A DNA stretch of 64,000 nucleotides from a virus, in IMG/VR virus record IMGVR_UViG_3300022539_000610, positions 50,032-114,031 of that record, one strand, 5' to 3'. Both the position numbers and the translations under genes were made by a program. A model generated the notes under the pieces. That model was not told the origin of the DNA, did no database searches, and saw only the letters and a list, made by a program, of their open reading frames with translations. Shown piece by piece: positions 33,895-55,774 of the stretch. Each line of letters starts with the position of its first letter. The first letter of the stretch is position 1.

Positions 33895-34464
33895 TTACTT
33901 CAAAAACCCTCGTGCCCTCATCGTCAAGGCCAGCATATACGTATGTTTGCAAGCTCCGGGCAATTTTCTCGGATTGACCGATGGCCTTGTTGTCGTCTTA
34001 CGAGCGTAAGGTCGTGGCTTTCTTCCCGCTGCTAAACTCCCGAATTGCCTTAGATACCACTCCGATCTATAATGAAAGCTGTCACAAGAACACCACACTG
34101 CTGCAGGATGTTTGTCTGCATCAAGTGGTTCCATCCAAACAGTCTTTCCAGGTTGTCCTTTCAATTCTACAGCAACAGGGATGGAATGCTTAGGGTCTCT
34201 TGTGTCTGCAAAGTCTACTCCATAAAAAATTATAGTCAAATCATATGCCGTACCCTCAGCACCGGTAGATCTTGCATCAAACCTCACCCATTTTGTTCCA
34301 GCATATGGTCTAACACTACGAATCTTTACATCTCGATCCTGCTTGAGTTCTCCCTTTAAGACCTTCTCAGTATTATTTAGAATCTGACGCAAAGTAAGCT
34401 TTGCTTTCCTTCTAAGCCTTCCTTCTCCTGCTTCCATTAATATTCTCTCCGCTCTTGATGTCAT
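33895..34464 (-). CDS. leader-tagged SWIM zinc-finger protein
   Basis: MTSRAERILME; VWCSCDSFHYR...NP..PGACKH. Confidence 0.8.
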   Translation of the reverse strand: MTSRAERILMEAGEGRLRRKAKLTLRQILNNTEKVLKGELKQDRDVKIRSVRPYAGTKWVRFDARSTGAEGTAYDLTIIFYGVDFADTRDPKHSIPVAVELKGQPGKTVWMEPLDADKHPAAVWCSCDSFHYRSEWYLRQFGSLAAGRKPRPYARKTTTRPSVNPRKLPGACKHTYMLALTMRARGFLK

Positions 34465-38540: not shown

Positions 38541-39955
38541 CATTTATCTTCGCTACAGTTCGCTACTCTGTAACCGTTAAGCCTTTGCTTAACTGCTGCA
38601 TGTCTCCATGCAAGGTGTGACTATCTCATCACCTCTTCTAATGAAGAGGGCCTACCGCTTCGTTAGAAAGTGATCGTCACTTCACTCCCTAATCCGTTTT
38701 CACGGAACCCGCTTGGGCCTACTCCCTTCCGGGATAGTCGATGAACTTTCCACACTTAGCACATCTAAGTGAGTATTAGCTGCTGGTTGCCTTAACAAAT
38801 CCTCAATCCTCGAAGTTACATCAACAAATCGTTCTTTGACAACGAAAATTTGATAATCCAGTAATTTCAATTCCTCAAACTTACTTTTCTTACTTGACTT
38901 CATGTAGTAACTATGAGTTTCTTTCAACCTATTCAAAACATCCAAATGCGCTTGATAATCAACCTTAGCAATAAATAAGTTACGTATCCAGTTTACTACT
39001 TTTTTAAACCGAACCCTTCCACTTCCTGGATTTTCTATCTGTAATAATGTTGGATTCGGAATCCGAATAATGCAAATATTATAGTTTTCCTTAATATACC
39101 TATCTCTACTAACATCGTATTTAAACTGACGTTTATCCACAACGTGATGAAATCCATCCACTTCCACGCCAAGTCGCAAGAAAGGTATATAGAAATCAAG
39201 CAAATAAAAACTACGAGGAGTAAACATAACCTTTTGAAGTTGGACTGAGTTACCCTTTCTGAGATTTTTACAGATCTTCTCACGCCTATTCCTAACCATT
39301 GTCCCTACTCCACGATACTCAAATGGAAAAGATCCAAACTTAGGCTGGGTACGTAAAAGACCTACAAGGGCATTAACAACATAATCAAATATATCTTCAT
39401 ACTTAGTAGAAACCAACAAATTTTCATAACGAAACTGCGCTATTCTATCTACCCTTCTCCCACCAACCTTTATATTATCTATCCTAACATTCCTATAGTC
39501 ACTATCAATTAACTCAAACTTAAACTCATCATCAAATACACCGACGAATGATGACACAAGTAAAGGTAAAAAGTTCAAGTTAATACTACGAATCCCAACA
39601 ATCTCAAACTTAACCCTCCTGACTTTCCTTTTAGTATCATTATAAAGACTAAACTTCCAAGAATCAAGAACATGAGGGTTCCTTACCTTACTTGGGTTCA
39701 AACGAACATTCCCATAACTACTAACCTGAAATCTATCCAAGTACTTTTTATCGCCAGAATAGATATCTGCATCTATATTAACCCAATATTCCATCTTCAA
39801 AACTCCTTTGCTTCATATCCGATAAGGAAAGAGTGAAGCTTTCTTCTCTTACTAACTATCCTTACCTCGTATAGTAAAACTAAAGTCTACTATTGGTCTT
39901 CCAGCAATTCAATAGGTTTAAACTTAGGATTACTCCTAAGCCGCTCTCGATGCGA
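38541..39955 (-). ncRNA. group I intron 1 in MCP (1415 nt, contains an endonuclease ORF)
   Basis: P1 GCUU|UCG-CAU-CGAGAGC with U.G at the junction; P AAUUGCUGGAA; Q AACCAGCAG; R GUUCAUCGACUA; S GAGAUAGUC; terminal G; splicing restores GCT TTC GAT. Confidence 0.92.
38700..39800 (-). CDS. intron-encoded homing endonuclease (NUMOD4-like N-terminus, Vsr/DUF559-like nuclease)
   Basis: EYWVNI...FQVSSYGNVR; YLLDFYIPFLRLGVEVDGFHH...DVSRDRYI...IIRIPN; AGGAG RBS and TTG start. Confidence 0.85.
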   Translation of the reverse strand: MKMEYWVNIDADIYSGDKKYLDRFQVSSYGNVRLNPSKVRNPHVLDSWKFSLYNDTKRKVRRVKFEIVGIRSINLNFLPLLVSSFVGVFDDEFKFELIDSDYRNVRIDNIKVGGRRVDRIAQFRYENLLVSTKYEDIFDYVVNALVGLLRTQPKFGSFPFEYRGVGTMVRNRREKICKNLRKGNSVQLQKVMFTPRSFYLLDFYIPFLRLGVEVDGFHHVVDKRQFKYDVSRDRYIKENYNICIIRIPNPTLLQIENPGSGRVRFKKVVNWIRNLFIAKVDYQAHLDVLNRLKETHSYYMKSSKKSKFEELKLLDYQIFVVKERFVDVTSRIEDLLRQPAANTHLDVLSVESSSTIPEGSRPKRVP

Positions 39956-40295: not shown

Positions 40296-41858
40296 TCATC
40301 TTGAAAACTGACCTAACATTCTCTCACCACGACTTGTACTAGAGATAGACTTTTTTGACTCAGAGATCTCTTCACCCTCACCAGGCTCATCCTTGTCTTC
40401 CTTCATCTCATAACTTTTGGAGACAGAAAGTCCGAAGTTCTCTCTCATGATGTTACCAGTTTCAATAGCAGCGTCCTTGGAACCAGTGTTGTCAAGTAAT
40501 TTCCCAGCCTTTTCATCATCGATCCCAAGGGCCTCTGCGACATCTTTTACATCCCGGGTTCGTTTGCTTTTTCTCATATCTTCAACAATTGTCTCCGTGA
40601 GTTCCAAGAGTCTCTCAATTTCCTCTGGGGTACCGAGTTCCAGGAATGACTCAGCCAAATCCATCACCCCTTCGATGTCTTCTGGGGTACCGAGCTCAGA
40701 GATCTTCTCAACAAAGTCCTTTGTCTTTTCAAATGCCTCGTTGATCTCACCAGGGGCACCAAGATCTGTATACTGCTGAAGCACATCCAGAGCCTCATTC
40801 AACTCTGCGATTGAGCCTAGTTCTTTGATGGACTCAGCAAGTTTCTTTGCTCCCTCTAAGGCCTGCTCAACCTCTTCCGCTGATCCTATATCCTTATAAG
40901 ACTCAGTGGCAGCAGTAAGATCCGTAACTTGCTCCTTGGCTGCTTTAAGATCCTTCTGAGTGCCCTCAACTGCCTCTAACACCTTAGAGAGCTCTGAGAC
41001 AGTTCCCAGCTCCTTATACTCCTTCAGGGATTCCTCAGAAGCACTTACCCTATCCTTGGCAACTGCGAGTTTGCCTTTTAAGTCTTCGTTGTCTGCCAGT
41101 ACCTTGTCCAGATCAGCTTGAATGTTGTTCTTCTCTGTCACAAGATTTTCCAGCATTTTAGTTTCTTTCTCTTTAGCTTCCATAATGAAAACCTCCTCAT
41201 TGGTTTCTTGTTCTTGTTCTTGTTTATTATCAGCAGTAGAATCTTCATCTACTACTAGTTCTTCTTTTACTATCTCAGGATCAATTCCATCCTCAACTAA
41301 CTCAGGAATTGCCCCTTTAACTCCTCCAATCTTCACAAAGTCAAACGTTTCCAACCTGAAAGTGTCAGGATCTATAGCTTGTGCTTCGCCTGTCGGAGTA
41401 TTAACCTTACCTTTAAACTTCCCATAAGCACGAGAGGAGGTTGCAAGTCTAACTCCTCCTCGAAAATATGTATTCAACACCTGCCCTGTTGGTGTGTTAA
41501 GAATAAGAGCTTCAATCATCCCTATGTGTGGATCGCCCTCATCCATCCAGAGCTTGACTATTCTATGAGAGGCTTTACCTTCACGAAGGGCCTTGTCATC
41601 CAGCTCCTGATCATGTCCAATGGTGCCAAGCATGAGGCCATTGTCCATATTTTTCTGATTCTCAGTAATCACTTTCGACCAAAGCTTCTTCTTGTAGTAC
41701 CTCCCATTTTCGCTTGCTCCATCAACAATGAAGCCCTGCCCACGAACACGGGCTAAGATATGCTTCCCATCTATAATAGGGTCACCCTTGGCCTCACAAA
41801 GTTGCCAGGCCGTTTCAAACATAAATTGGTCTCTAATAAGTTCTAATCCATTTTCCAT
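40296..41858 (-). CDS. prohead protease (T4 gp21-like) fused to scaffold/core domain
   Basis: NGRYY, GTIGH, ASHRI, ILNTPTGQ, SSRAYG, FRLETFDFV; then acidic coiled coil with repeats. Confidence 0.92.
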   Translation of the reverse strand: MENGLELIRDQFMFETAWQLCEAKGDPIIDGKHILARVRGQGFIVDGASENGRYYKKKLWSKVITENQKNMDNGLMLGTIGHDQELDDKALREGKASHRIVKLWMDEGDPHIGMIEALILNTPTGQVLNTYFRGGVRLATSSRAYGKFKGKVNTPTGEAQAIDPDTFRLETFDFVKIGGVKGAIPELVEDGIDPEIVKEELVVDEDSTADNKQEQEQETNEEVFIMEAKEKETKMLENLVTEKNNIQADLDKVLADNEDLKGKLAVAKDRVSASEESLKEYKELGTVSELSKVLEAVEGTQKDLKAAKEQVTDLTAATESYKDIGSAEEVEQALEGAKKLAESIKELGSIAELNEALDVLQQYTDLGAPGEINEAFEKTKDFVEKISELGTPEDIEGVMDLAESFLELGTPEEIERLLELTETIVEDMRKSKRTRDVKDVAEALGIDDEKAGKLLDNTGSKDAAIETGNIMRENFGLSVSKSYEMKEDKDEPGEGEEISESKKSISSTSRGERMLGQFSR

Positions 41859-42860: not shown

Positions 42861-43316
42861 CTACTTAACCCTCTCAAACTTCTGAACCACTCTATGTGAA
42901 AAAACACGCATTTCTCCAATTTTACCCTTCATGATCGTGTAGTACCCATCATGCCCTATTGAATGTATAGCTTTACTCATATCATCCACATCAGCCCTCG
43001 TAGGGTCTATACCAGAATCCTTCAACCAATCATACACCTCTTTATGCTTAGGTTTTTTACTCTTACCCTGCCAAAAATTGTAATCGACTACTAGTGGGTT
43101 CTTTAAACTTATCCATACTTTGAAAAGGTCATCACCATAATCTAATGCATACTCAGGGTCCTCTGTAAATGAAATCCCAAGGTATCCATCAGCTTCATCC
43201 CGAGACAAGTGAAATCTTCCTGCCTTCTCAATCTCATCACCCTGACGAGTTCCATGATAAAAAATAAAAGCCTTTGCCTCCACTAAACTCAAAATCTTTG
43301 AAGCTCTACTCACCAT
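42861..43316 (-). CDS. leader-tagged ADP-ribosyltransferase-fold (ART-PolyVal-like) protein
   Basis: MVSRASKILSLVE; FYHGT, GISFTEDPEYALDYG, ISLKNPL, GHDGY, EMRVF. Confidence 0.75.
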   Translation of the reverse strand: MVSRASKILSLVEAKAFIFYHGTRQGDEIEKAGRFHLSRDEADGYLGISFTEDPEYALDYGDDLFKVWISLKNPLVVDYNFWQGKSKKPKHKEVYDWLKDSGIDPTRADVDDMSKAIHSIGHDGYYTIMKGKIGEMRVFSHRVVQKFERVK

Positions 43317-43904
43317 CTATCCTTTAATCTTTTTTGCAAATTTCTTATTTGTGTCAGTTTTTAAACCAAGATCCTTCATCTTATCAACACGTGATCTATC
43401 CTTGTCACTCATACTGTCTTTTTTCATAATAATAGGAAGTTTTTGTTTTCCCTTCCCTCGCATCACGGAGACCTGAGCAATAGTCTCTTCAACTTCTCCA
43501 CTATCTACCTCACCAGCCATAAGCAAAGCATTAAGGACGCTTTTGTTCAACCACGACAAATCTGCCAAATCCAATATCAAGTCATCTCCAATCTCAATGA
43601 TACCTGGATCAAAGGGATCAAGGAGAATCGTTATTTGTTCATCGTCATCACTTACAACTGAAGCCAAAGGACCTTGATCATCTTCAATACCAAACCAGAC
43701 CGTCACTTCATCCCCTTCCTCATCATAGAAGGTGACAAAGGGGCCTTCATCCAAATCTAACACTACAGAGACACCAATATTGGAATAACCAAAACTATCA
43801 AGTTTATCGAGGAACTCATCTTCAATCTCTTTCGCAGAAGAGGCTCCGTAATGTGATAAAGATAGGAATTCATTAATTTTATTCGTTACGTCAATCGCTT
43901 TCAT
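43317..43904 (-). CDS. acidic hypothetical protein with leader-like N-terminus
   Basis: MKAIDVTNKINE. Confidence 0.65.
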   Translation of the reverse strand: MKAIDVTNKINEFLSLSHYGASSAKEIEDEFLDKLDSFGYSNIGVSVVLDLDEGPFVTFYDEEGDEVTVWFGIEDDQGPLASVVSDDDEQITILLDPFDPGIIEIGDDLILDLADLSWLNKSVLNALLMAGEVDSGEVEETIAQVSVMRGKGKQKLPIIMKKDSMSDKDRSRVDKMKDLGLKTDTNKKFAKKIKG

Positions 43905-44293
43905 TACTTACCCCCCGCATAGATTTCTCGTCCCTTCTTAATCACTTCCTTATCATAACCTATCTGTCTAGTGATCCAATCCTCTATCTCACTCCACTCT
44001 TTCCCTTCTTTCTTCATTTTAAGAATCTGTTTCTCCATACCTTCCACTTTCTTTGATTGAGCTTCATCTAAAATGACCCTGGCACGAGACATGTTTAGAG
44101 GTTTCTCAATACATACTCTGTCAACAAGACGTAAAGGGAACATAGCACTAACGTCTTCTAAGTCCTTGTCAATCTGTTCAGTGGTTTCTCTATCCATCAT
44201 AACCTTATGCTCCCCTTTCGGGAGGTCAGGTCCGGGTAGACTAACTCGTACATTTCTCAAACTTTCGCTTACTTTCGTTCTACGTCTTCTCAT
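43904..44293 (-). CDS. hypothetical protein with an internal leader at 44092
   Basis: Internal MSRARVILDE at residue 68. Confidence 0.6.
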   Translation of the reverse strand: MRRRRTKVSESLRNVRVSLPGPDLPKGEHKVMMDRETTEQIDKDLEDVSAMFPLRLVDRVCIEKPLNMSRARVILDEAQSKKVEGMEKQILKMKKEGKEWSEIEDWITRQIGYDKEVIKKGREIYAGGK

Positions 44294-45196: not shown

Positions 45197-45898
45197 CTAC
45201 TCCTTAATTGTCAAGGCATCACAGAATCCATACTTTCGACGCTCTATAACTTCTTTAAGGATTTTTCCTTCAGCTAACTTAACCATCATCTTCTTTCTAC
45301 ACACAGAATCCACCTTCTCGCTAATAGGAATTTGAGATAAAAGAGAAACTAACTCAGGATCAAGATAAGGAAGATAAACTTTAATATCCCCACTGTTTCT
45401 GTCAAGAGGAGCCAAATGCTCTTCTTGAAGTCGTTGAACATAATCAAAGTACATTTCCTCACTCGGATCTTTCTGATGGGCATAATAACCACACATATAC
45501 TCATCTATACCATCACAAGAAATAATCTCAGAAACCCCTAGTTTAGCTAAATTATCATAAAAAGCTTTAACGATCTCGTCGCCAGGAAACCCATCCTGTA
45601 CCGGAGGAATATCATCAGGAATATAGGTATGAAGTGTTGCTGCCCTAAAACGGTTTGCAATTAAATTAGCATGTATATAATCGGGGTGTTCGGTATTCTT
45701 CGCAATCACATAACAGTTTATTTCTTCTCTTTCACAAAGCACAGCTAAATACCACAGAATCAAAGATGAATCCAACCCCCCTGACAAGGCCAAGTTGTTA
45801 CAATCAATCATAGACAAGGCATTCAATATTCCCCTATCTATATCATCAATAGTTATTTTTCGACCTACACGATGCCACCATAAAGGAAATTCAATCAT
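45197..45898 (-). CDS. asparagine synthase C-terminal domain protein (no glutaminase domain)
   Basis: LALSGGLDSS, DGIDEYMCGY, LPYLD, ERRKYGF. Confidence 0.88.
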   Translation of the reverse strand: MIEFPLWWHRVGRKITIDDIDRGILNALSMIDCNNLALSGGLDSSLILWYLAVLCEREEINCYVIAKNTEHPDYIHANLIANRFRAATLHTYIPDDIPPVQDGFPGDEIVKAFYDNLAKLGVSEIISCDGIDEYMCGYYAHQKDPSEEMYFDYVQRLQEEHLAPLDRNSGDIKVYLPYLDPELVSLLSQIPISEKVDSVCRKKMMVKLAEGKILKEVIERRKYGFCDALTIKE

Positions 45899-46626
45899 AA
45901 CTCCTCTCCTTTGTAATTTTGTTTTATTCTATCCACAATCATATCAAAATGCTTACTGTTGAATTCAAATGCAACTACATCCATATCGTTCATCAAAGCC
46001 ACAACTATGTCTGTACCAGATCCACCAAACAAACTTAACAACTTTCCTCCTGGCACAGCGACTGGCTTTACACAGTAATCGACCACCTCCACGGGCTTGG
46101 CACCATCCTTGAACTTGTTGTCCTCAATCTTTAGTATGGGAAAAGGAAAGACATCAGGATATTTCCCATGGAAAGCAGACTCAAATCCGTAATAAAGAAT
46201 GGTCTCATGAGACCGTTGGAAATTGGTCCCGTCATCGAAATCGAAATGGTTTTCATATGTCCAGCTTATCCACCTCCTGAAGGGAATATCATAGTTATCA
46301 TCAAGCACCGATTTTATGATACTTGCCCCCTCCGGATAGTTGAAGATGAACAATGATCCATTGTTCCTCAGCTTAGACAAACAAGAAGTGAACAGTCTTA
46401 TGTAACACGATCGAAAATCCAGCCTCCCTTGCAGCTGGCCCAAATCGAAATCGTCCCAATCAGCATCTGCCCATCCATACTCAGGCCAGTTGCCGTAAGG
46501 CCCGTCACATATGATTACATCGAACATCTCATCTAATGTAGAAACCGAAAGATTGTTCTCAAGATACAACTGTACTTTACAAATTCGATTTTTCCCTTGA
46601 ATACAAAAGTCTCTTTCCGTTACCAT
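45895..46626 (-). CDS. N4/N6 DNA methyltransferase (beta-class order)
   Basis: FDVIICDGPY (DPPY variant), HETILYY, KPVEV, LFGGSGT. Confidence 0.85.
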   Translation of the reverse strand: MVTERDFCIQGKNRICKVQLYLENNLSVSTLDEMFDVIICDGPYGNWPEYGWADADWDDFDLGQLQGRLDFRSCYIRLFTSCLSKLRNNGSLFIFNYPEGASIIKSVLDDNYDIPFRRWISWTYENHFDFDDGTNFQRSHETILYYGFESAFHGKYPDVFPFPILKIEDNKFKDGAKPVEVVDYCVKPVAVPGGKLLSLFGGSGTDIVVALMNDMDVVAFEFNSKHFDMIVDRIKQNYKGEEL

Positions 46627-49121: not shown

Positions 49122-51023
49122 CTAAACTTGCTCAACCTTGATAACGGCTGAATTAAAAATTGACTCATACAAATCAGCCTGTGTACTTCCTTCATCAATA
49201 ATTTCTTTCATATATGCTTCATGAAACTCTTCTTTTCCGTAGAACTTTTCCATTTGCTCATAAGCATTCCAAAGACTCCCAGTTACAGCGTCAGCAATAT
49301 CCTTACTACCTCGACGTTGGCCTTGGGACTTATCCTCATCTCCTTCCGTGTCACTTGCATAGAGGGGGTGGTCTATCTTATCCCCCAAGTCAAGAAGGTT
49401 CTTGAGTTCAGTCCTCAATCTCGGGTGCTTTACCCCGTTATATCTTCCCTCAAGCAAGACATTTTTAAAATGATCATATGGAGCACGGTTCTTATCAACA
49501 GATATAATCTTTGAATCTACTCCCATAAGCCAGAGATCCTGTTTAAGGTTCTCAGACTGGTACCCATCAGCAGTCACCGAAGCCACAGTCACTCCAGCTT
49601 GCATAAGATCCCTAACAAAGTTCTTTATCTTATAGATCGGAACATCTTGTCCTGCCTTCGACTTGAGGGCCATCACAAAGTCAGTCCAGAATATTGGTTC
49701 CTTAGTAGTAAGAAACTCTCCTGTACCTGTGTCCCGCCTCGTAACAGTAACAAACCCTATGATGCACGACATCGCTATACCCGCTAAGTCATGCCTAATA
49801 CCCAAGTCAACATGGATGAACCGTGGCCTTTTATGCTTCAATACCTCTTGGATGAGAAGGTACTTAATCAGCACATCACTCTGGTCATAGAAATCAAGAG
49901 CGATAATGTCCTTCGTGACAGGATTTCTTCTAATCAAGCCTTCTTCTATTTTCTCCACTGACGAGATGAACTTATGAGTAGAAAATACTGCTTTACCAGC
50001 CAATTCTCTGATTGCACTGTAAGGATCATCAAGGAAATCGTCATAGTGAATAACAGGTACTTCTATTACTCGTGACTCATCAAGTCCCCGCATTTGTCGA
50101 GCATGTGAGATAATCGCCGGATCATGAGTATCGTCTCCAATGAACATCTTAAACATCTCACAGTTCTGATACTGAACATCAGGCTTCGCCACCCAAATAG
50201 GATAATCAAAAACTCGAACCCTGGGTTTCCTCTGTACCTGCTTGATATGCATCTCCAGGAATGCCGCTTCATCTGCCTTCGAGGAGTCAAGCCACATGTG
50301 TCCAGGCCACTTAGTGAGAAACCTTGTCTGCATTCTTCTCTTGTTTGCCGTATAGTTCAGATATGCCTGATTATTTACACGATTCTGAAAGTTAAGCTCA
50401 GACAGTACCACCCCACCTACAGCCTGTCCAATGGTGTGAGTAAATCTAGAACCTTCAACGAGGTCAAGATTCTTTTGAAACATAGACTTCCTTGCCCCAC
50501 CTTCATTCAAACGAGACTTCAAGAAAGGTGAGGATTGAATCCACTCTATTAGCTCATCAAATAGAGCTCCTTTTGCTGTCTTCAATGTCTCACAATAGAT
50601 ACCATAGAGAATCCTTGTTGTTTTCCCAAGATTAGGAAAATGAAGCTGTGGACTCCTAAGAAACAACATCTTTGTCCAATCATACAAGACCCCTATCTTT
50701 GCCTTCCAGGTTTTCCCACCCCCTAGACTTCCAGTTAATACAATTTCATCGTAAGGGCTATAGAAAGGATTTGGATAAATCTCCCTCAATCCAGCTCGAC
50801 GAATGGGGAAAACAGCTGTCTTGTCCTCCATGTCATTCCAGAGGACATTCTTGAGATAGTCCGCTCCATCCATGAACTCATCAATGGTGGGTGGGACTTC
50901 CTCGTATCCTGCAACCTTTGCCAGAGACTTTACAGTATCATTGTAGCCATGGGCAGAGACCATCTGAGTAAGGAGTTGTGTACCAGGATCAGTTTTCTCC
51001 TGTTTAGGTTTTCGACGGGCCAT
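49122..51023 (-). CDS. terL: terminase large subunit
   Basis: VLTGSLGGGKT Walker A, VLSELNF Walker B, FIHVDLG, ADGYQS, KIDHP, SKDIADAV nuclease motifs. Confidence 0.93.
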   Translation of the reverse strand: MARRKPKQEKTDPGTQLLTQMVSAHGYNDTVKSLAKVAGYEEVPPTIDEFMDGADYLKNVLWNDMEDKTAVFPIRRAGLREIYPNPFYSPYDEIVLTGSLGGGKTWKAKIGVLYDWTKMLFLRSPQLHFPNLGKTTRILYGIYCETLKTAKGALFDELIEWIQSSPFLKSRLNEGGARKSMFQKNLDLVEGSRFTHTIGQAVGGVVLSELNFQNRVNNQAYLNYTANKRRMQTRFLTKWPGHMWLDSSKADEAAFLEMHIKQVQRKPRVRVFDYPIWVAKPDVQYQNCEMFKMFIGDDTHDPAIISHARQMRGLDESRVIEVPVIHYDDFLDDPYSAIRELAGKAVFSTHKFISSVEKIEEGLIRRNPVTKDIIALDFYDQSDVLIKYLLIQEVLKHKRPRFIHVDLGIRHDLAGIAMSCIIGFVTVTRRDTGTGEFLTTKEPIFWTDFVMALKSKAGQDVPIYKIKNFVRDLMQAGVTVASVTADGYQSENLKQDLWLMGVDSKIISVDKNRAPYDHFKNVLLEGRYNGVKHPRLRTELKNLLDLGDKIDHPLYASDTEGDEDKSQGQRRGSKDIADAVTGSLWNAYEQMEKFYGKEEFHEAYMKEIIDEGSTQADLYESIFNSAVIKVEQV

Positions 51024-51041: not shown

Positions 51042-51308
51042 TTACTTCGGGTCAGGTTTGACGTCTTCGATGTCAACTATGGTTTTAACCTGCTCGATAC
51101 CCACAGCTACATTCCCAGGGCCTTTGAGATTCGTAACCCCGGTGTCATCGACAGTAAAAGTCTTTCCTACATCAAGTCCAAAAGTCTCTGCGTGTCCCTT
51201 GTCTTTAAGGGCAACTACTTTCACCTTCTTAAATTTTGTTACTTTATCACCCTTCGCTGGGGTGATCACCTCTTCCAGTTTCTTTACCATTTCACTTGCT
51301 CTACTCAT
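51042..51308 (-). CDS. leader-tagged small protein
   Basis: MSRASEMVKKLEE. Confidence 0.75.
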   Translation of the reverse strand: MSRASEMVKKLEEVITPAKGDKVTKFKKVKVVALKDKGHAETFGLDVGKTFTVDDTGVTNLKGPGNVAVGIEQVKTIVDIEDVKPDPK

Positions 51309-51458
51309 TTGCTTTTCCTCCTAATAGGTTTGTTTTTACATCCTTTAAATAATACATTCGCGGAACTCTTCTTATTATTTTATCTGCCTTTATCCTCTCT
51401 ATAAAATCTATAGCTTTAGCTTTCGTATCGGCGTCAACCATATCCCAAAATTTTGACA

Positions 51459-51506
51459 TCATACTTTCTTAATAAAAATGTTTAATCCTCCTAATGCTCT
51501 ACTCAT
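51459..51506 (-). CDS. leader-only mini-ORF or remnant
   Basis: MSRALGGLNIFIKKV*, with ATGAGTAGAGCA start after a purine-rich RBS. Confidence 0.35.
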   Translation of the reverse strand: MSRALGGLNIFIKKV

Positions 51507-51515
51507 TTCTTCCCC

Positions 51516-51929
51516 TTATATCTTTTGTAAAATAGCCTGTGCTTTCTTTAATTGTTCAAGCTCAGGAAGTTTCTCTTTCGTTGCAACCTTCATTGCTTTA
51601 TCTAATGATTCAATAGCCTGGTTAAGATAAAGTTTAATTGTATACTTCTTCTCCCTACCCAGTTTAAGCGCTGCTAGTGCCCACTTGTCTTGCAGCATTG
51701 GTGATACCTCAACCAACAGACCAATCAAATACAATGCCTCTACTGCCTTTGAAAACTTTTCTCCAAAAGAAAGTTCTGTTCCGCAATTACTGCACCGTAA
51801 GGGATAACGACCCTGATACGAAGGAATAACTAATCCACAACCTGAACACTTCCTTCCGCTTGGTGGAAGCTTAGCCATTGCATTTTTCATTCCAGGACTA
51901 ACAGTAACTCCACTTGCTTTACCCATCAT
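51516..51929 (-). CDS. zinc-ribbon protein
   Basis: CSGC...CSNC; ends LKKAQAILQKI. Confidence 0.7.
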   Translation of the reverse strand: MMGKASGVTVSPGMKNAMAKLPPSGRKCSGCGLVIPSYQGRYPLRCSNCGTELSFGEKFSKAVEALYLIGLLVEVSPMLQDKWALAALKLGREKKYTIKLYLNQAIESLDKAMKVATKEKLPELEQLKKAQAILQKI

Positions 51930-52383
51930 TACTCTCCTTGATAAGTGGTTTCCCTCCTGCTATCATTCCAGGGATTTGCCTTTTATCCTTAACATTCAAA
52001 ACCACCTCATTTAATCCAGACTTACGGTCACAGTTACTTAAAAGCCAGTGTCCACAGTCAAGTTGAATAGCAAGCTCACAGTGTTCATTTGGATCTCGTA
52101 TAGTAGGTTTACGAATTGTTTTCACAGAAGCAGTGACATCCTTCCCATCCCAAGGACAAGTGTACTTTGGTCCCACTCGACCTATTTTTTTCAAGGCCGC
52201 TCCTGCTCGGGTCACTCTTTTCCTTTTACCAAGGACTTTCCAGAAAACTTCATCCAGAATAGTAATAGTGACTGGCTTTCCTGTAACACTTCGAAAGGCA
52301 ACCTGAATCTCACTCATGAAGGTATTCCAAGAAGATGGATCTAGTTCACTCAGGGCTTTATGTATGTCAATGACTTTTGTCAT
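51919..52383 (-). CDS. hypothetical protein, untagged paralog of 54624-54824
   Basis: MTKVIDIHKALSELDPSSWNTFMSEIQ. Confidence 0.75.
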   Translation of the reverse strand: MTKVIDIHKALSELDPSSWNTFMSEIQVAFRSVTGKPVTITILDEVFWKVLGKRKRVTRAGAALKKIGRVGPKYTCPWDGKDVTASVKTIRKPTIRDPNEHCELAIQLDCGHWLLSNCDRKSGLNEVVLNVKDKRQIPGMIAGGKPLIKESNDG

Positions 52384-52805
52384 CTTCTTCCAACCTCTCT
52401 TAACAGGCTCTCAGTAAGTTCTTTATACACCTCACTTGGAGATTTATTAACTAAAGCCATTAAAGTTTTAAGTCGGTTAACCTTAATCACAGGGACATCC
52501 AATCCAAGTTCCTGATATGCCAAGGCTCTAGTATTCCCATCCACTATTCTAGAGGGATTAGACAGTCTAACAAAAACTGGAATAATTCCCTTTCCCTGTT
52601 TAATCCTATTCTTATAATAATCCACCCTCTCTCTGGCAGAAGGCAGCTCTACCTCGATCTTTAGTTTACTTGGCTTTGTAGTATAAACACTACCAGAAGG
52701 ACCTTCTCCTACTTTCTCTTTCAACGACTTGTTAAGCATCGCTTGCCATATATGATCGACAAGTTCCACAAAAACATGGCTCATCATAATCTTCAGTGTG
52801 TTCAT
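52380..52805 (-). CDS. ParB/Srx-like domain protein
   Basis: PVFV...IVDGNTRALAYQELG. Confidence 0.75.
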   Translation of the reverse strand: MNTLKIMMSHVFVELVDHIWQAMLNKSLKEKVGEGPSGSVYTTKPSKLKIEVELPSARERVDYYKNRIKQGKGIIPVFVRLSNPSRIVDGNTRALAYQELGLDVPVIKVNRLKTLMALVNKSPSEVYKELTESLLREVGRR

Positions 52806-52950
52806 CCCAGCTTAAGGTGTGATAATACCTAGGATAATGTTTTTTCACATCCTGCTTATATCCCTTCCAATCATTCCCGTAATATTTATCCATTTTATCC
52901 TCCATTTAAGTAGACGCCTAACAGTATACTTACTTTAATCCTCCTACTTA

Positions 52951-53388
52951 TCATACGTTTCTAACTTCATTATAAAAATCAGTAAGTCTCTTGATATGAG
53001 TATTTTTATTGAATACATCTCCTGGACCTGTACTTTGATCAGTATCAACATTAAATTTCTTTCTTATCGCAGGTTCAATATAAGCGTGCATTGCCTTATC
53101 AGCTCTCCAAATATATGTACTTCCTTTAGAATCGTAAACAGATCTTGTTTTCGGCTCCCCACGAAGCATATTCGGATATTCAGCTCTCATCTCCCTTGCT
53201 ATACTTTGATAATCGCTTGATGATGGATTCTTTATGACTTCAACTTTCCGTCCAGATACATTAACATAGAAATAATCAGTTTCAAATTGACTCTTAACAA
53301 ACTCTTCTGCGCTCTTATACTTCCTTGCTTCTTTAGCAAGATATTCAAACTCTTTACCTTTCTTTAGAATAGAGGAAGCTCTACTCAT
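52951..53388 (-). CDS. leader-tagged protein
   Basis: MSRASSILKKGKE; VEVIKNPS...YIWRADKAMH. Confidence 0.75.
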   Translation of the reverse strand: MSRASSILKKGKEFEYLAKEARKYKSAEEFVKSQFETDYFYVNVSGRKVEVIKNPSSSDYQSIAREMRAEYPNMLRGEPKTRSVYDSKGSTYIWRADKAMHAYIEPAIRKKFNVDTDQSTGPGDVFNKNTHIKRLTDFYNEVRNV

Positions 53389-53447
53389 CTATTACTCCTC
53401 CTATATCCTCTTGAATGATACCTTCTTATGATTTTCTTCCTTGATGT

Positions 53448-53894
53448 TCATTTATAATAATTCAAATAAACCTTTTTATCTAATTTCAATAAAAACTTAC
53501 TAAACTCATACCTCACATTAGACTTAACTTTAGTTATTGGCAACCAACTACTACCATCATAAAACTCAATATCTTCTGGAGGTACATTCCTCTTTACCCA
53601 GAATTCTTTAGCATCAAGATTGTCAGCATCTTTTAGCTTATCTTTAGATACTCTTAGCAATAACACTTCAGGTTTATCTTTCTTTTGAGCAACATTTTGT
53701 GAAACATAGTACCAAGACTCATTAGGAGAAAATGCAAAATATACCCTGTCAGTATAACTCCCAAACCATGAAGCCGATCTTGGTGTTAACCCTTTTGATT
53801 TTATTGCATCGGCATTACCAGAATATGACACATGATAGCCATATCCTGTATCTATCTCATTTACCTTCTTAATTATCTTCTGAGCCCTATTCAC
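53448..53894 (-). CDS. leader-tagged Tpt1/KptA-like ADP-ribosyltransferase-fold protein
   Basis: MNRAQKIIKKVNE; YHVS...IKSKGLTP, RVYFA, LLLRV, EFWV..VPPEDI. Confidence 0.7.
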   Translation of the reverse strand: MNRAQKIIKKVNEIDTGYGYHVSYSGNADAIKSKGLTPRSASWFGSYTDRVYFAFSPNESWYYVSQNVAQKKDKPEVLLLRVSKDKLKDADNLDAKEFWVKRNVPPEDIEFYDGSSWLPITKVKSNVRYEFSKFLLKLDKKVYLNYYK

Positions 53895-53900
53895 TTTACT

Positions 53901-54245
53901 CTACTCATCTTTTATTACTCCACCAATGTCCTGCCTGACAATATCATCTTCCGCATAGGAAACAAACATTTCCTCGATTACTACAGCCTTTTCGTATACC
54001 CGAAATTCGTGTTTCCACTCTTCACCTGGTGCAGTAGTGAATTCTTGCCCCTTCGTCAAAACTACTTCTCCATACTTTGTGCGGATTCCAATCTTTCCTT
54101 CTAAAACAACAAACAAGTTATACTTAGCTTGATGGTAATGAAAAGAGCATCTTGTTCCTTTTTTTAGAAAGAGTACAGAAGTGGCGTGAGTTGAGTCGCT
54201 ACGCAAGAGCCACCGTTCTCCCCAAATTTGTAAGGTACGTTGCAT
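53901..54245 (-). CDS. cupin domain protein
   Basis: IWGER, CSFHYHQAK, FVVLEGKI, HEFR. Confidence 0.85.
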   Translation of the reverse strand: MQRTLQIWGERWLLRSDSTHATSVLFLKKGTRCSFHYHQAKYNLFVVLEGKIGIRTKYGEVVLTKGQEFTTAPGEEWKHEFRVYEKAVVIEEMFVSYAEDDIVRQDIGGVIKDE

Positions 54246-54526
54246 TACTTCCCGCTTTCTCTCTCCTTAACTGCTTTCTTGATACTATCAGGAATGGAAG
54301 ATAATTTCTTACCCAAATGCTTTCCAATTTTCACATCAACACCAACAGTCCCTGAATACTGATTAAATCCTTGAGGAGAATCAGGGTTATCACTCATCCC
54401 ATAAACATCATCCCCTATGATAACAGTGTACCTGTCCGCAGTCTTCCCACCATTATCGTAAACCACAACTTTACCTTTCTCAAAAACATTACCAATAATT
54501 TCCAATATCTCTTTCGCTCTACTCAT
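54245..54526 (-). CDS. leader-tagged protein
   Basis: MSRAKEILEIIGNVFE; YDNGGKTADRYTV...PQGF...HLGKK. Confidence 0.75.
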   Translation of the reverse strand: MSRAKEILEIIGNVFEKGKVVVYDNGGKTADRYTVIIGDDVYGMSDNPDSPQGFNQYSGTVGVDVKIGKHLGKKLSSIPDSIKKAVKERESGK

Positions 54527-54623
54527 CTCTATTCTCCTCATTGTATTGTTACAGTCTTAACCTTACCAGGTGCAAATCGTCCCATATACCCCTTGACTTT
54601 CTTATGGGCCTTCGTTATTACAT

Positions 54624-54824
54624 TTACCTTTTACCAATCAACCTTTTAAAAGATTTATCTAACTTAATAGTAGGAACTGTCACTCCCGCTGTGTCTTGAA
54701 TAGCCGATTGAATTTCACTCATGAAAGTATTCCAAGATGATGGGTCTAGATCACTTAAGGCCTTATGGATGTCGGCGACTTTAGTTTCCTTCAAACCATA
54801 GATTAAATTACTTGCCTTGCTCAT
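54624..54824 (-). CDS. leader-tagged paralog of 51919-52383 (possibly frameshifted)
   Basis: MSKASNLIYGLKE|TKVADIHKALSDLDPSSWNTFMSEIQ. Confidence 0.75.
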   Translation of the reverse strand: MSKASNLIYGLKETKVADIHKALSDLDPSSWNTFMSEIQSAIQDTAGVTVPTIKLDKSFKRLIGKR

Positions 54825-55774
54825 CTTATCCTCCTTAAAATCTTGGACACCTTCGTCTTATTCAACGCTCTATCTAACTTCCTATTCAGTAACTCCTCAG
54901 TCAGGAAGCTCTCATCTATTCCATTCCTCACCCTATCCACAGCCTTATCCACAGAGGAGCCTAAACAATAAACACTCACAAGAAACTCCCGAAGCTGAGC
55001 AAACGAGAAACCGTCAGTCTTATCAGCCAGATCCTCAAGGGTCTTCTCATCTTCATGCATCCCAAGTTTATGCTTCAAATACGCCAACCTTCCTTCAGCG
55101 GGTGGGTTCTTGATCTCAATAATCTTATCAATTCTTCCTGGTCTCCGAATCCTCTCCGACAACTTGTTATAGTAATTAGTTGTAAAGAGGAAAAGTACTC
55201 CATCAGTCTGAGCATCCCCATCCAGTAGTTCCAAAATGGGATGTTCACCCCCATAGTCAAACACACGGTCAATGTCCTCCATAACAATTAAGACATGCCG
55301 GTCGGGCTCTACATCTCGATACACTGCCAGGGCTTCCTTCAATATGTAGGAGTCCTTGACGATGAATACTACATCCCCTCTGGCAACACAGTCTTCCATT
55401 ACTAGCTTTAGCAAACAACTTTTTCCTACACCAGGTTCACCTCGGAGCAATACTCCTCTCTTATGGGTAAAGCCAAGTTTGACATACTCGTTCTTCCGTT
55501 GCCAGAAGTCCTTAATCTCCCCTAAGACTTCTTTGTGCCTAGAATCATCAAAGCGAAGCAGTTCATCAGTATTGAGTTCATGAAACTCAAACAAGATCCC
55601 AGCCATTGTGCTCTTCACCTGATACATCCCAGGGTCAAGTTTTTCCTGAGTCACTATAGCACCCATAGGTAAAAAGGAATTCTTTTGAACTCTAAACTGA
55701 GTGTAGACTCGTTCTCTTTTTCTGGCATTTTCGATCGTCTTGACTACTTCTTTTGCTTCTCTTCTCATCTTCAA
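54821..55774 (-). CDS. AAA+ ATPase
   Basis: KRGVLLRGEPGVGKS, VMEDID, FTTNY, RRPGRIDK. Confidence 0.93.
   Translation of the reverse strand: MKMRREAKEVVKTIENARKRERVYTQFRVQKNSFLPMGAIVTQEKLDPGMYQVKSTMAGILFEFHELNTDELLRFDDSRHKEVLGEIKDFWQRKNEYVKLGFTHKRGVLLRGEPGVGKSCLLKLVMEDCVARGDVVFIVKDSYILKEALAVYRDVEPDRHVLIVMEDIDRVFDYGGEHPILELLDGDAQTDGVLFLFTTNYYNKLSERIRRPGRIDKIIEIKNPPAEGRLAYLKHKLGMHEDEKTLEDLADKTDGFSFAQLREFLVSVYCLGSSVDKAVDRVRNGIDESFLTEELLNRKLDRALNKTKVSKILRRIR

Follow-up and report, generated by a model that had tools for sequence, protein, structure and literature searches.

The DNA stretch analyzed here, in the following called the window, comprises positions 50,032 to 114,031 of the IMG/VR virus record IMGVR_UViG_3300022539_000610. 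It has a length of 64,000 nt and makes up the right-hand part of a phage genome that is contained in a single contig of 114,031 bp and has a G+C content of 40%. All open reading frames (ORFs) of the window taken as genes are located on the minus strand. A short N-terminal peptide of recurring sequence, referred to as tag or leader, precedes the bodies of a number of these genes. The pair of genes at the center of this study consists of a tagged ORF of 66 amino acids (aa; 54624-54824) and a paralogous ORF of 154 aa (51919-52383), at which the following features were defined with the help of metagenome proteins (P0002-P0004) and metagenome contigs (L001-L003):

54786..54824, minus strand: tag of the 66-aa gene, MSKASNLIYGLKE (aa 1-13), ending in L-K-E (tag pattern; AlphaFold2 helix)
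54624..54785, minus strand: body of the tagged paralog, the N-module, aa 14-66 plus TAA (aligns to aa 2-54 of the 154-aa ORF)
52222..52383, minus strand: untagged copy of the N-module, Met1 plus aa 2-54, without a stop codon of its own (BLASTP, DNA alignment, dN/dS)
52177..52215, minus strand: internal tag V-TRAGAALKKIGR, aa 57-69, lacking Glu (alignment with the starts of relatives)
51919..52176, minus strand: Cys/His-rich C-module (CPWDGKD...HC...CGHW...C), aa 70-154 plus stop (61-67% identity to P0002-P0004 and loci L001-L003)

The 66-aa ORF reads MSKASNLIYGLKE-TKVADIHKALSDLDPSSWNTFMSEIQ..., while the 154-aa ORF reads M-TKVIDIHKALSELDPSSWNTFMSEIQ.... BLASTP aligned the two proteins in one ungapped segment, aa 14-66 of the former with aa 2-54 of the latter, in which 33 of 53 residues are identical (62%, E-value 3e-21). 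At the DNA level, homology starts with ACT/ACA, the codon following GAA (Glu13) in the 66-aa gene and ATG (Met1) in the 154-aa gene. It ends with GGT AAA AGG, after which the shorter gene continues with TAA and the longer one with AAA. The original prediction, according to which homology begins right after L-K-E, was therefore confirmed for protein and DNA and goes beyond chance, and a boundary between Glu13 and Thr14 of the 66-aa protein, to within one residue, is supported by these alignments. An apparent extension of the homology by approximately 12 nt into the last codons of the tag at the 5′ junction was dropped as too short for judgement. In an AlphaFold2 model of the 66-aa protein, a helix spans aa 3-13 and is broken at positions 14-15; the model is of low confidence (pLDDT 62.6) and usable for its secondary structure only. 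An all-vs-all BLASTP comparison covering the whole genome (114 kb, 763 ORFs) identified this pair as the only paralog pair involving a tagged gene.

As had been assumed, the 154-aa ORF carries no hidden tag further upstream, since an in-frame stop codon is located nine codons before the ATG and no start codon lies between them. Its description as an untagged paralog holds for the N-terminus, but the ORF is an in-frame fusion and contains an internal tag at aa 57-69. The 66-aa gene is preceded by the ribosome-binding site AGGAGG; for the 154-aa gene, the start shows ATGA coupling to the neighboring upstream gene and has a GAGG in front of it. Over the 53 shared codons, the paralogs show a synonymous divergence (dS) of about 1.4 and a ratio of non-synonymous to synonymous divergence (dN/dS) of about 0.2, which argues for an old duplication with both copies under selection, so that the untagged copy does not represent debris. 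A search of 5.8 billion proteins yielded no homologs of the N-module, and none were found in L001-L003. Because the module has no homologs elsewhere, the pair does not reveal whether the tag was gained or lost. Of the proposal that the tag is a modular unit which can be gained or lost, the modularity was retained: the tag is separable and the body was kept with and without it.

The occurrence of the tag in the genome was determined by searching all ORF starts for the strict pattern M[STN][KR]Axx[ILVM][ILVM]. On the coding strand, 25 ORF starts match, 24 of them within the window between 22112 and 57705, compared to five other matches elsewhere on this strand with the three frames combined. The resulting leader consensus is M-S-[KR]-A-x-x-[IL]-[LI]-x-x-[LIV]-x-E with a length of 9-13 residues, in which position 4 is invariably Ala and positions 7-8 are restricted to I, L, V or M. 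The tagged genes, about 25 in number, make up approximately 12% of the ORFs or about one gene in eight. Approximately 14 of the tags are located within the head-tail module. Apart from one pair, the tagged bodies are mutually unrelated by BLASTP, and searches in Pfam and PHROGs provided no families for most of them. A 148-aa tagged protein has no homologs beyond the genome's own copy. Searches by tblastn against known phages were empty for this protein as well as for a tagged ADP-ribosyltransferase described below, and no close relatives were found in IMG/VR with the 154-aa protein and the terminase as queries. The T4 late promoter sequence TATAAATA has one match, located on the wrong strand and below the number expected by chance, and so gives no information on timing.

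Codons 2-4 of the tags are mostly AGY-ARA-GCA. Nevertheless, Ser2 is encoded by AGY and TCN codons, Ala4 by all four of its codons and Leu8 by five, and similar hydrophobic residues at positions 7, 8 and 11 arise from many codons. This synonymous variation argues that the tag is selected as a peptide and not as a DNA repeat. The motif [LIVM]xE ending at aa 9-13 is found in 21 of the 25 tags, compared to 20 of 175 other N-termini (11%), 10% of internal five-residue windows and 20% of the positions following internal hydrophobic doublets. The Glu is found at position 9, 10, 12 or 13, and the residue following it is most commonly Ala (7 of 21 tags, manual count).

Additional features of the window considered in the following are:

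42861..43313, minus strand: tagged ADP-ribosyltransferase, MSRASKILSLVE followed by AKAFIFYHGT... (Pfam ART-PolyVal, 32.2 bits, domain from aa 16)
33895..34464, minus strand: tagged 189-aa protein, MTSRAERILME followed by AGE..., with a CxC...CxH C-terminus (homolog of gp284 of Rhizobium phage TM30)
52226..53425, minus strand: block of approximately 1.2 kb not present in L001, with a tagged 145-aa gene, a 57-aa ORF, a 141-aa gene and the N-module copy (blastn)
54821..55774, minus strand: AAA ATPase, encoded immediately 5′ of the tagged 66-aa gene (Pfam AAA, 41.6 bits)
40296..41858, minus strand: prohead protease fused to scaffold, 520 aa, gp21 family (phrog_207, 6.6e-17)
40314..40334, minus strand: tag-like SRGERML, five residues from the C-terminus of the protease-scaffold protein (motif list)

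Two further tagged proteins allow the boundary to be located by means of homologs, for which the original prediction expected alignments starting just after [LIV]xE. For the tagged ADP-ribosyltransferase, the five strongest foreign hits of an exhaustive HMMER search have alignments starting at residues 16-18 of the query. In the untagged homolog P0023 (190 aa), which reads MKVIAYHGT at its N-terminus, Met1 aligns to Lys14, one residue past Glu12-Ala13 and hence past L-V-E. The 189-aa protein shows a constant offset of 14 residues relative to the untagged TM30 gp284 (168 aa), an approximate value as the first 30 residues are unaligned. Both cases are independent of the paralog pair and place the boundary at approximately the same position. 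The leader lies outside the folded body, given that the untagged paralog is under purifying selection and that the ADP-ribosyltransferase domain and P0023 begin 1-5 residues past the Glu. Taken as one exact and two approximate cases, the comparisons support a tag that is a modular unit ending at Glu. Another ADP-ribosyltransferase homolog, P0009, has the tag-like start MNRNTEMIINE; the closest homologs of the tagged enzyme are domains within very large polyvalent proteins. The C-terminal CxC...CxH motif of the 189-aa protein appears SWIM-like by eye, and its homolog is part of the structural module of TM30. The protein is a candidate virion protein of both phages.

The 154-aa ORF is composed of the untagged N-module, Lys-Arg, V-TRAGAALKKIGR and the C-module, all in frame. 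Residues 57-154 form the second module, with the internal tag copy as its first 13 residues. A search with the complete protein detected three metagenome proteins that match residues 57-154 only and start with MTRAGDLLKKIGRGGPKY... or MSRAGDLLRKIGRGGPKY.... In three syntenic metagenome relatives, the C-module is a stand-alone gene with a tag start (MTRAGDLLKKIGR / MSRAGDLLRKIGR). GTG 52215 of the window is aligned to the ATG start of the relatives, and the ribosome-binding site AAGGnnAAGA is common to both. The contigs L001-L003 are syntenic with positions 51042-55774 of the window, a region comprising the AAA ATPase, a cupin, the 148-aa tagged gene, a zinc-ribbon gene and an 88-aa tagged gene. 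In a blastn comparison, window positions 53900-53426 correspond to L001 1-475 with 94% identity, followed by 52225-51742 corresponding to L001 484-961. The 3′ junction of the 1.2-kb block absent from L001 coincides with the ribosome-binding site of the C-module gene, and the last element of the block is the N-module without a stop codon. Lacking this stop codon, the N-module copy is fused in frame to the ribosome-binding site, start codon and tag of the C-module gene. The stand-alone tagged C-module of the relatives suggests that, for this module, the fused form of the window is derived. With the Shine-Dalgarno sequence kept, a separate 98-aa tagged product can probably still be made from GTG 52215.

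Two other ORFs have a similar arrangement. A 129-aa ORF of the window (43904-44293, minus strand) harbors an internal tag, MSRARVILDE, at 44092, which follows 67 residues of open frame and has no Shine-Dalgarno sequence; it represents a second in-frame order of module, tag and module resembling that of 51919-52383. On L002 (1188-1706, plus strand), no stop codon separates the C-module gene from another tagged module that follows it (...LIQEVKN-MGKARELLEKIG...), which constitutes a third fusion with an internal tag. The zinc-ribbon genes downstream of the C-module start with MMGKASGVTV in the window (51516-51929, minus strand), MTKAAKITPG in L001 (783-1181) and MSEPAKITVG in L002 (1710-1952), and these starts may be degenerate tags. 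Upstream of the fusion, the 141-aa gene (52380-52805, minus strand) contains a ParB/Srx-like stretch recognized by eye (IVDGNTRALA); its only PHROG match is a weak one to an entry without assigned function.

Upstream of the 66-aa gene, the AAA ATPase has a counterpart at the equivalent position in L002, where a different tagged body follows. Window and L002 share DNA identity across the end of the ATPase gene, the ribosome-binding site and the first five codons of the tag, whereas the bodies beyond differ, which indicates that the tag also acts as a cassette boundary. On L003 (582-1961, plus strand), a 459-aa tagged protein (MNKATKLLLALNE...) combines a RimK-like ATP-grasp ligase (Pfam RimK, 140 bits) with a Zn_protease-type domain and would be a large enzymatic candidate for a cargo protein. 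Its tag boundary could not be placed, as the PDB alignments begin too far into the protein.

As in phage T4, a protease of the gp21 family and a capsid protein of the gp23 type are encoded in the genome. In a tblastn search, the protease-scaffold protein matched 315 phage records, including T4-like cyanophages and a Rhizobium phage "prohead core scaffolding and protease protein", whereas a PDB sequence search with it returned coiled-coil noise only. Pairwise alignment with T4 gp21 over 209 aa places LGELNH and GVSSRG of T4 opposite LGTIGH and ATSSRA; in T4, the catalytic pair is formed by His in the former motif and by the first of the two adjacent Ser residues in the latter (position 140, counted in the alignment). 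Sites of the form [LIVM]xE are abundant in the scaffold part. The protein ends with ...STSRGERMLGQFSR, which holds the tag-like heptad and corresponds in the alignment to the C-terminal ...LTSRLMESFSK of the TM30 protein; this hints that cargo leader and scaffold tail share one binding site. The major capsid protein scores 61.3 bits with Pfam Gp23 on its middle exon, and an ORF matching an HNH endonuclease (phrog_559) lies between the segments of the capsid protein gene (38700-39800, minus strand). Judged by these protein families, the phage has a T4-type head module.

The nearest sequenced phages belong to the RHph_TM30 group (family Kleczkowskaviridae), with sequence identities of 41% for the terminase (49122-51023), 36% for the portal protein, 35% for the protease-scaffold and 57-64% for the capsid protein, and with gene order kept. 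In contrast to the studied phage, TM30 has no array of tags in its head-tail module and shows a single tag-like start (MSRSSELLNKV), which makes the expansion of the tag specific to the lineage of the studied phage. A DNA methyltransferase gene (45895-46626, minus strand) is located between the portal and protease genes in an insert of approximately 5 kb, which consists of small, mostly tagged genes and is not present in the head module of TM30.

By analogy, the closest known system is the capsid-targeting sequence (CTS) of T4, of which the leader would be a variant. The T4 CTS comprises the first 10 residues of IPIII, with mutagenesis assigning targeting to residues 4 and 7 and processing to residues 8 and 10 (PMC9026906). 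In the tags of the studied phage, residue 4 is likewise a fixed position and residues 7 and 8 are consistently hydrophobic. The gp21 cleavage motif is L/I-x-E, and the internal proteins (IPs) of T-even phages are diverse and have only the CTS in common (PMC9026906; PMC3012670). Here as well, an N-terminal peptide of about 10 residues is found on otherwise unrelated, fast-changing proteins, and the ADP-ribosyltransferase among the candidate cargo proteins has a parallel in T4 Alt, a packaged ADP-ribosyltransferase (PMC9026906). The leaders in the T4 record read MKTYQEFIAE followed by A (ipII, ipIII), MKTFKEF... (ipI) and MAKINELLRE followed by S (gp24). Those of ipII, ipIII and gp24 share the layout of the tag, with hydrophobic residues at 7-8, [L/I]-x-Glu at 8-10 and Glu10. 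However, positions 2-6 of the IP leaders differ, and with the consensus MS[KR]AxxIL and an invariant Ala4 instead of Tyr4, the similarity to the T4 CTS is one of layout and not of sequence. The gp24 leader is a closer match (M-x-K-x-N-E-L-L-x-E), although ten residues are insufficient as proof of homology. Further differences from T4 are the variable length of the tags, the lack of Glu in some, the internal tags in in-frame fusions, the approximately 25 tagged genes instead of a handful, and the fusion of protease and scaffold.

Routing of cargo by an N-terminal segment is also known from DarB of phage P1, where such a segment suffices to direct the protein into the capsid (PMC9024508). That signal differs from the tag in its length of approximately 30 residues, in being confined to one very large protein without being shared, and in having no Glu-specific protease site. 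In phiKZ-like phages and SPN3US, the propeptides are long and mutually dissimilar with the motif [S/A/G]-x-E, whereas the leader described here is short and common to many proteins. A parallel to the cleavage proposed here is that many head-internal proteins of these giant phages are cut after Glu by a diverged gp21 homolog (PMC9026906).

The sequence data establish the modularity of the tag, the position of its boundary, the selection at the peptide level, the motif enrichment and the occurrence of both protein families, protease and capsid protein, in the genome; docking, cleavage and injection are inferred by analogy. The leader would be a T4-type capsid-targeting sequence on a modular N-terminus that is cleaved after [LIVM]-x-Glu, a reading to which we assign a probability of roughly 50%. 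As a self-contained peptide module in front of unrelated folded bodies, the leader would attach its protein to the prohead during assembly, either at the scaffold or at the shell. The gp21-family protease would then remove the leader after [LIVM]-x-Glu, and the freed body would be carried in the head and delivered into the host together with the DNA. The helical body of approximately 53 residues, kept with the leader and, as an old duplicate under selection, without it, fits such a separable signal. That the leader would end at a site cut by the protease is a reasonable analogy, in line with the enrichment of [LIVM]xE and with the protease family encoded in the genome. The predicted gp21-type site would apply to the 21 tags with the motif, but not to the C-module tag (MSRAGDLLRKIGRGGPKY in the relatives, VTRAGAALKKIGR in the window), whose lack of Glu means that such a site cannot end every tag.

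Besides this tag, several other observations weigh against capsid targeting. The boundary is exact in one pair and approximate in the two further cases, both AlphaFold2 models (66 aa and 154 aa) are of low confidence, with that of the 154-aa protein being unusable (pLDDT 45.7), and the protease-scaffold protein reaches 18.3 bits with Pfam Peptidase_S77, under the curated cut-off of 27. Four of the 25 tags lack [LIVM]xE. About 10 tagged genes are located upstream of the terminase gene together with the AAA ATPase, cupin and zinc-ribbon genes, an atypical setting for head genes, and 25 cargo species are many for a 114-kb phage.

In a rival reading, the leader would be an uncleaved docking helix, portable between proteins and recognized by a partner other than the prohead, such as the AAA ATPase, a host factor or a shared oligomerization partner, with the Glu marking the end of an amphipathic helix. 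The order of AAA ATPase and tagged gene is kept in L002, many tagged genes lie near the ATPase and away from the head-tail genes, the C-module tag has no Glu, and fusions tolerate internal tags. We consider such a helix possible but doubtful, as approximately 14 tags are located within the head-tail module, the [LIVM]xE enrichment fits gp21 specificity, and Ala often follows the Glu as in T4 (7 of 21). Moreover, the tag resembles the propeptides of T4 gp24 and the IPs as well as the scaffold C-terminus, and the link between ATPase and tag is one of adjacency only. The resemblance to the scaffold leads to an extended form of capsid targeting, in which the products of about one in eight genes would be loaded into the head via a leader copying a shell-binding helix at the scaffold C-terminus (SRGERML). 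Trimming would let genes fused without stop codons yield separate cargo proteins in the manner of polyprotein beads. We regard this extension as unlikely, although it would explain the three fusions with internal tags (51919-52383, 43904-44293 and L002 1188-1706).

A role mainly at the nucleic-acid level, with the ribosome-binding site and A-rich start context boosting translation and/or a recombination patch and the peptide as a by-product, draws on the DNA identity of window and L002 through the first five tag codons before the bodies diverge, and on the preference for AGY-ARA-GCA at codons 2-4. It is weakened by the codon data (AGY and TCN for Ser, four Ala codons, diverse codons at positions 7, 8 and 11), by a Glu motif located 9-13 codons past the start, and by the paralog junction, which coincides with the 3′ end of the tag instead of lying within it. 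Recombination is also compatible with a peptide function, as proposed for the internal protein genes of T-even phages. We judge this role quite improbable. Still more improbable is an accident of decay, in which the N-module of 51919-52383 would be a dead readthrough remnant in front of a real gene starting at GTG 52215, leaving the pair uninformative on the tag. The kept ribosome-binding site, the agreement of this GTG with the start in the relatives and the absence of N-module homologs outside the genome would fit such a remnant. However, a dN/dS of 0.2 at a dS of about 1.4 over 53 codons is not expected of dead sequence, and the frame is open, with GAGG upstream and an ATG that is ATGA-coupled to the preceding gene.

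If the leader is indeed a loading and cleavage signal of the capsid-targeting type, this phage lineage delivers an unusually large and quickly reshuffled set of ready-made proteins into its host. An ADP-ribosyltransferase would be among them, as would a RimK-like ligase in one of the relatives. Natural deletion and insertion experiments are provided by the paralog pair, by the ADP-ribosyltransferase homolog that lacks the tag, and by the fusions. Of practical value is that the tag is precisely delimited, with a predicted cut point after Glu13 in the 66-aa protein. Its layout is common with that of the T4 leaders in spite of a very distant relationship of protease and capsid protein. Thus, cargo loading by short leaders may be old and widespread in heads of the gp21/gp23 type rather than a speciality of the T-even phages.

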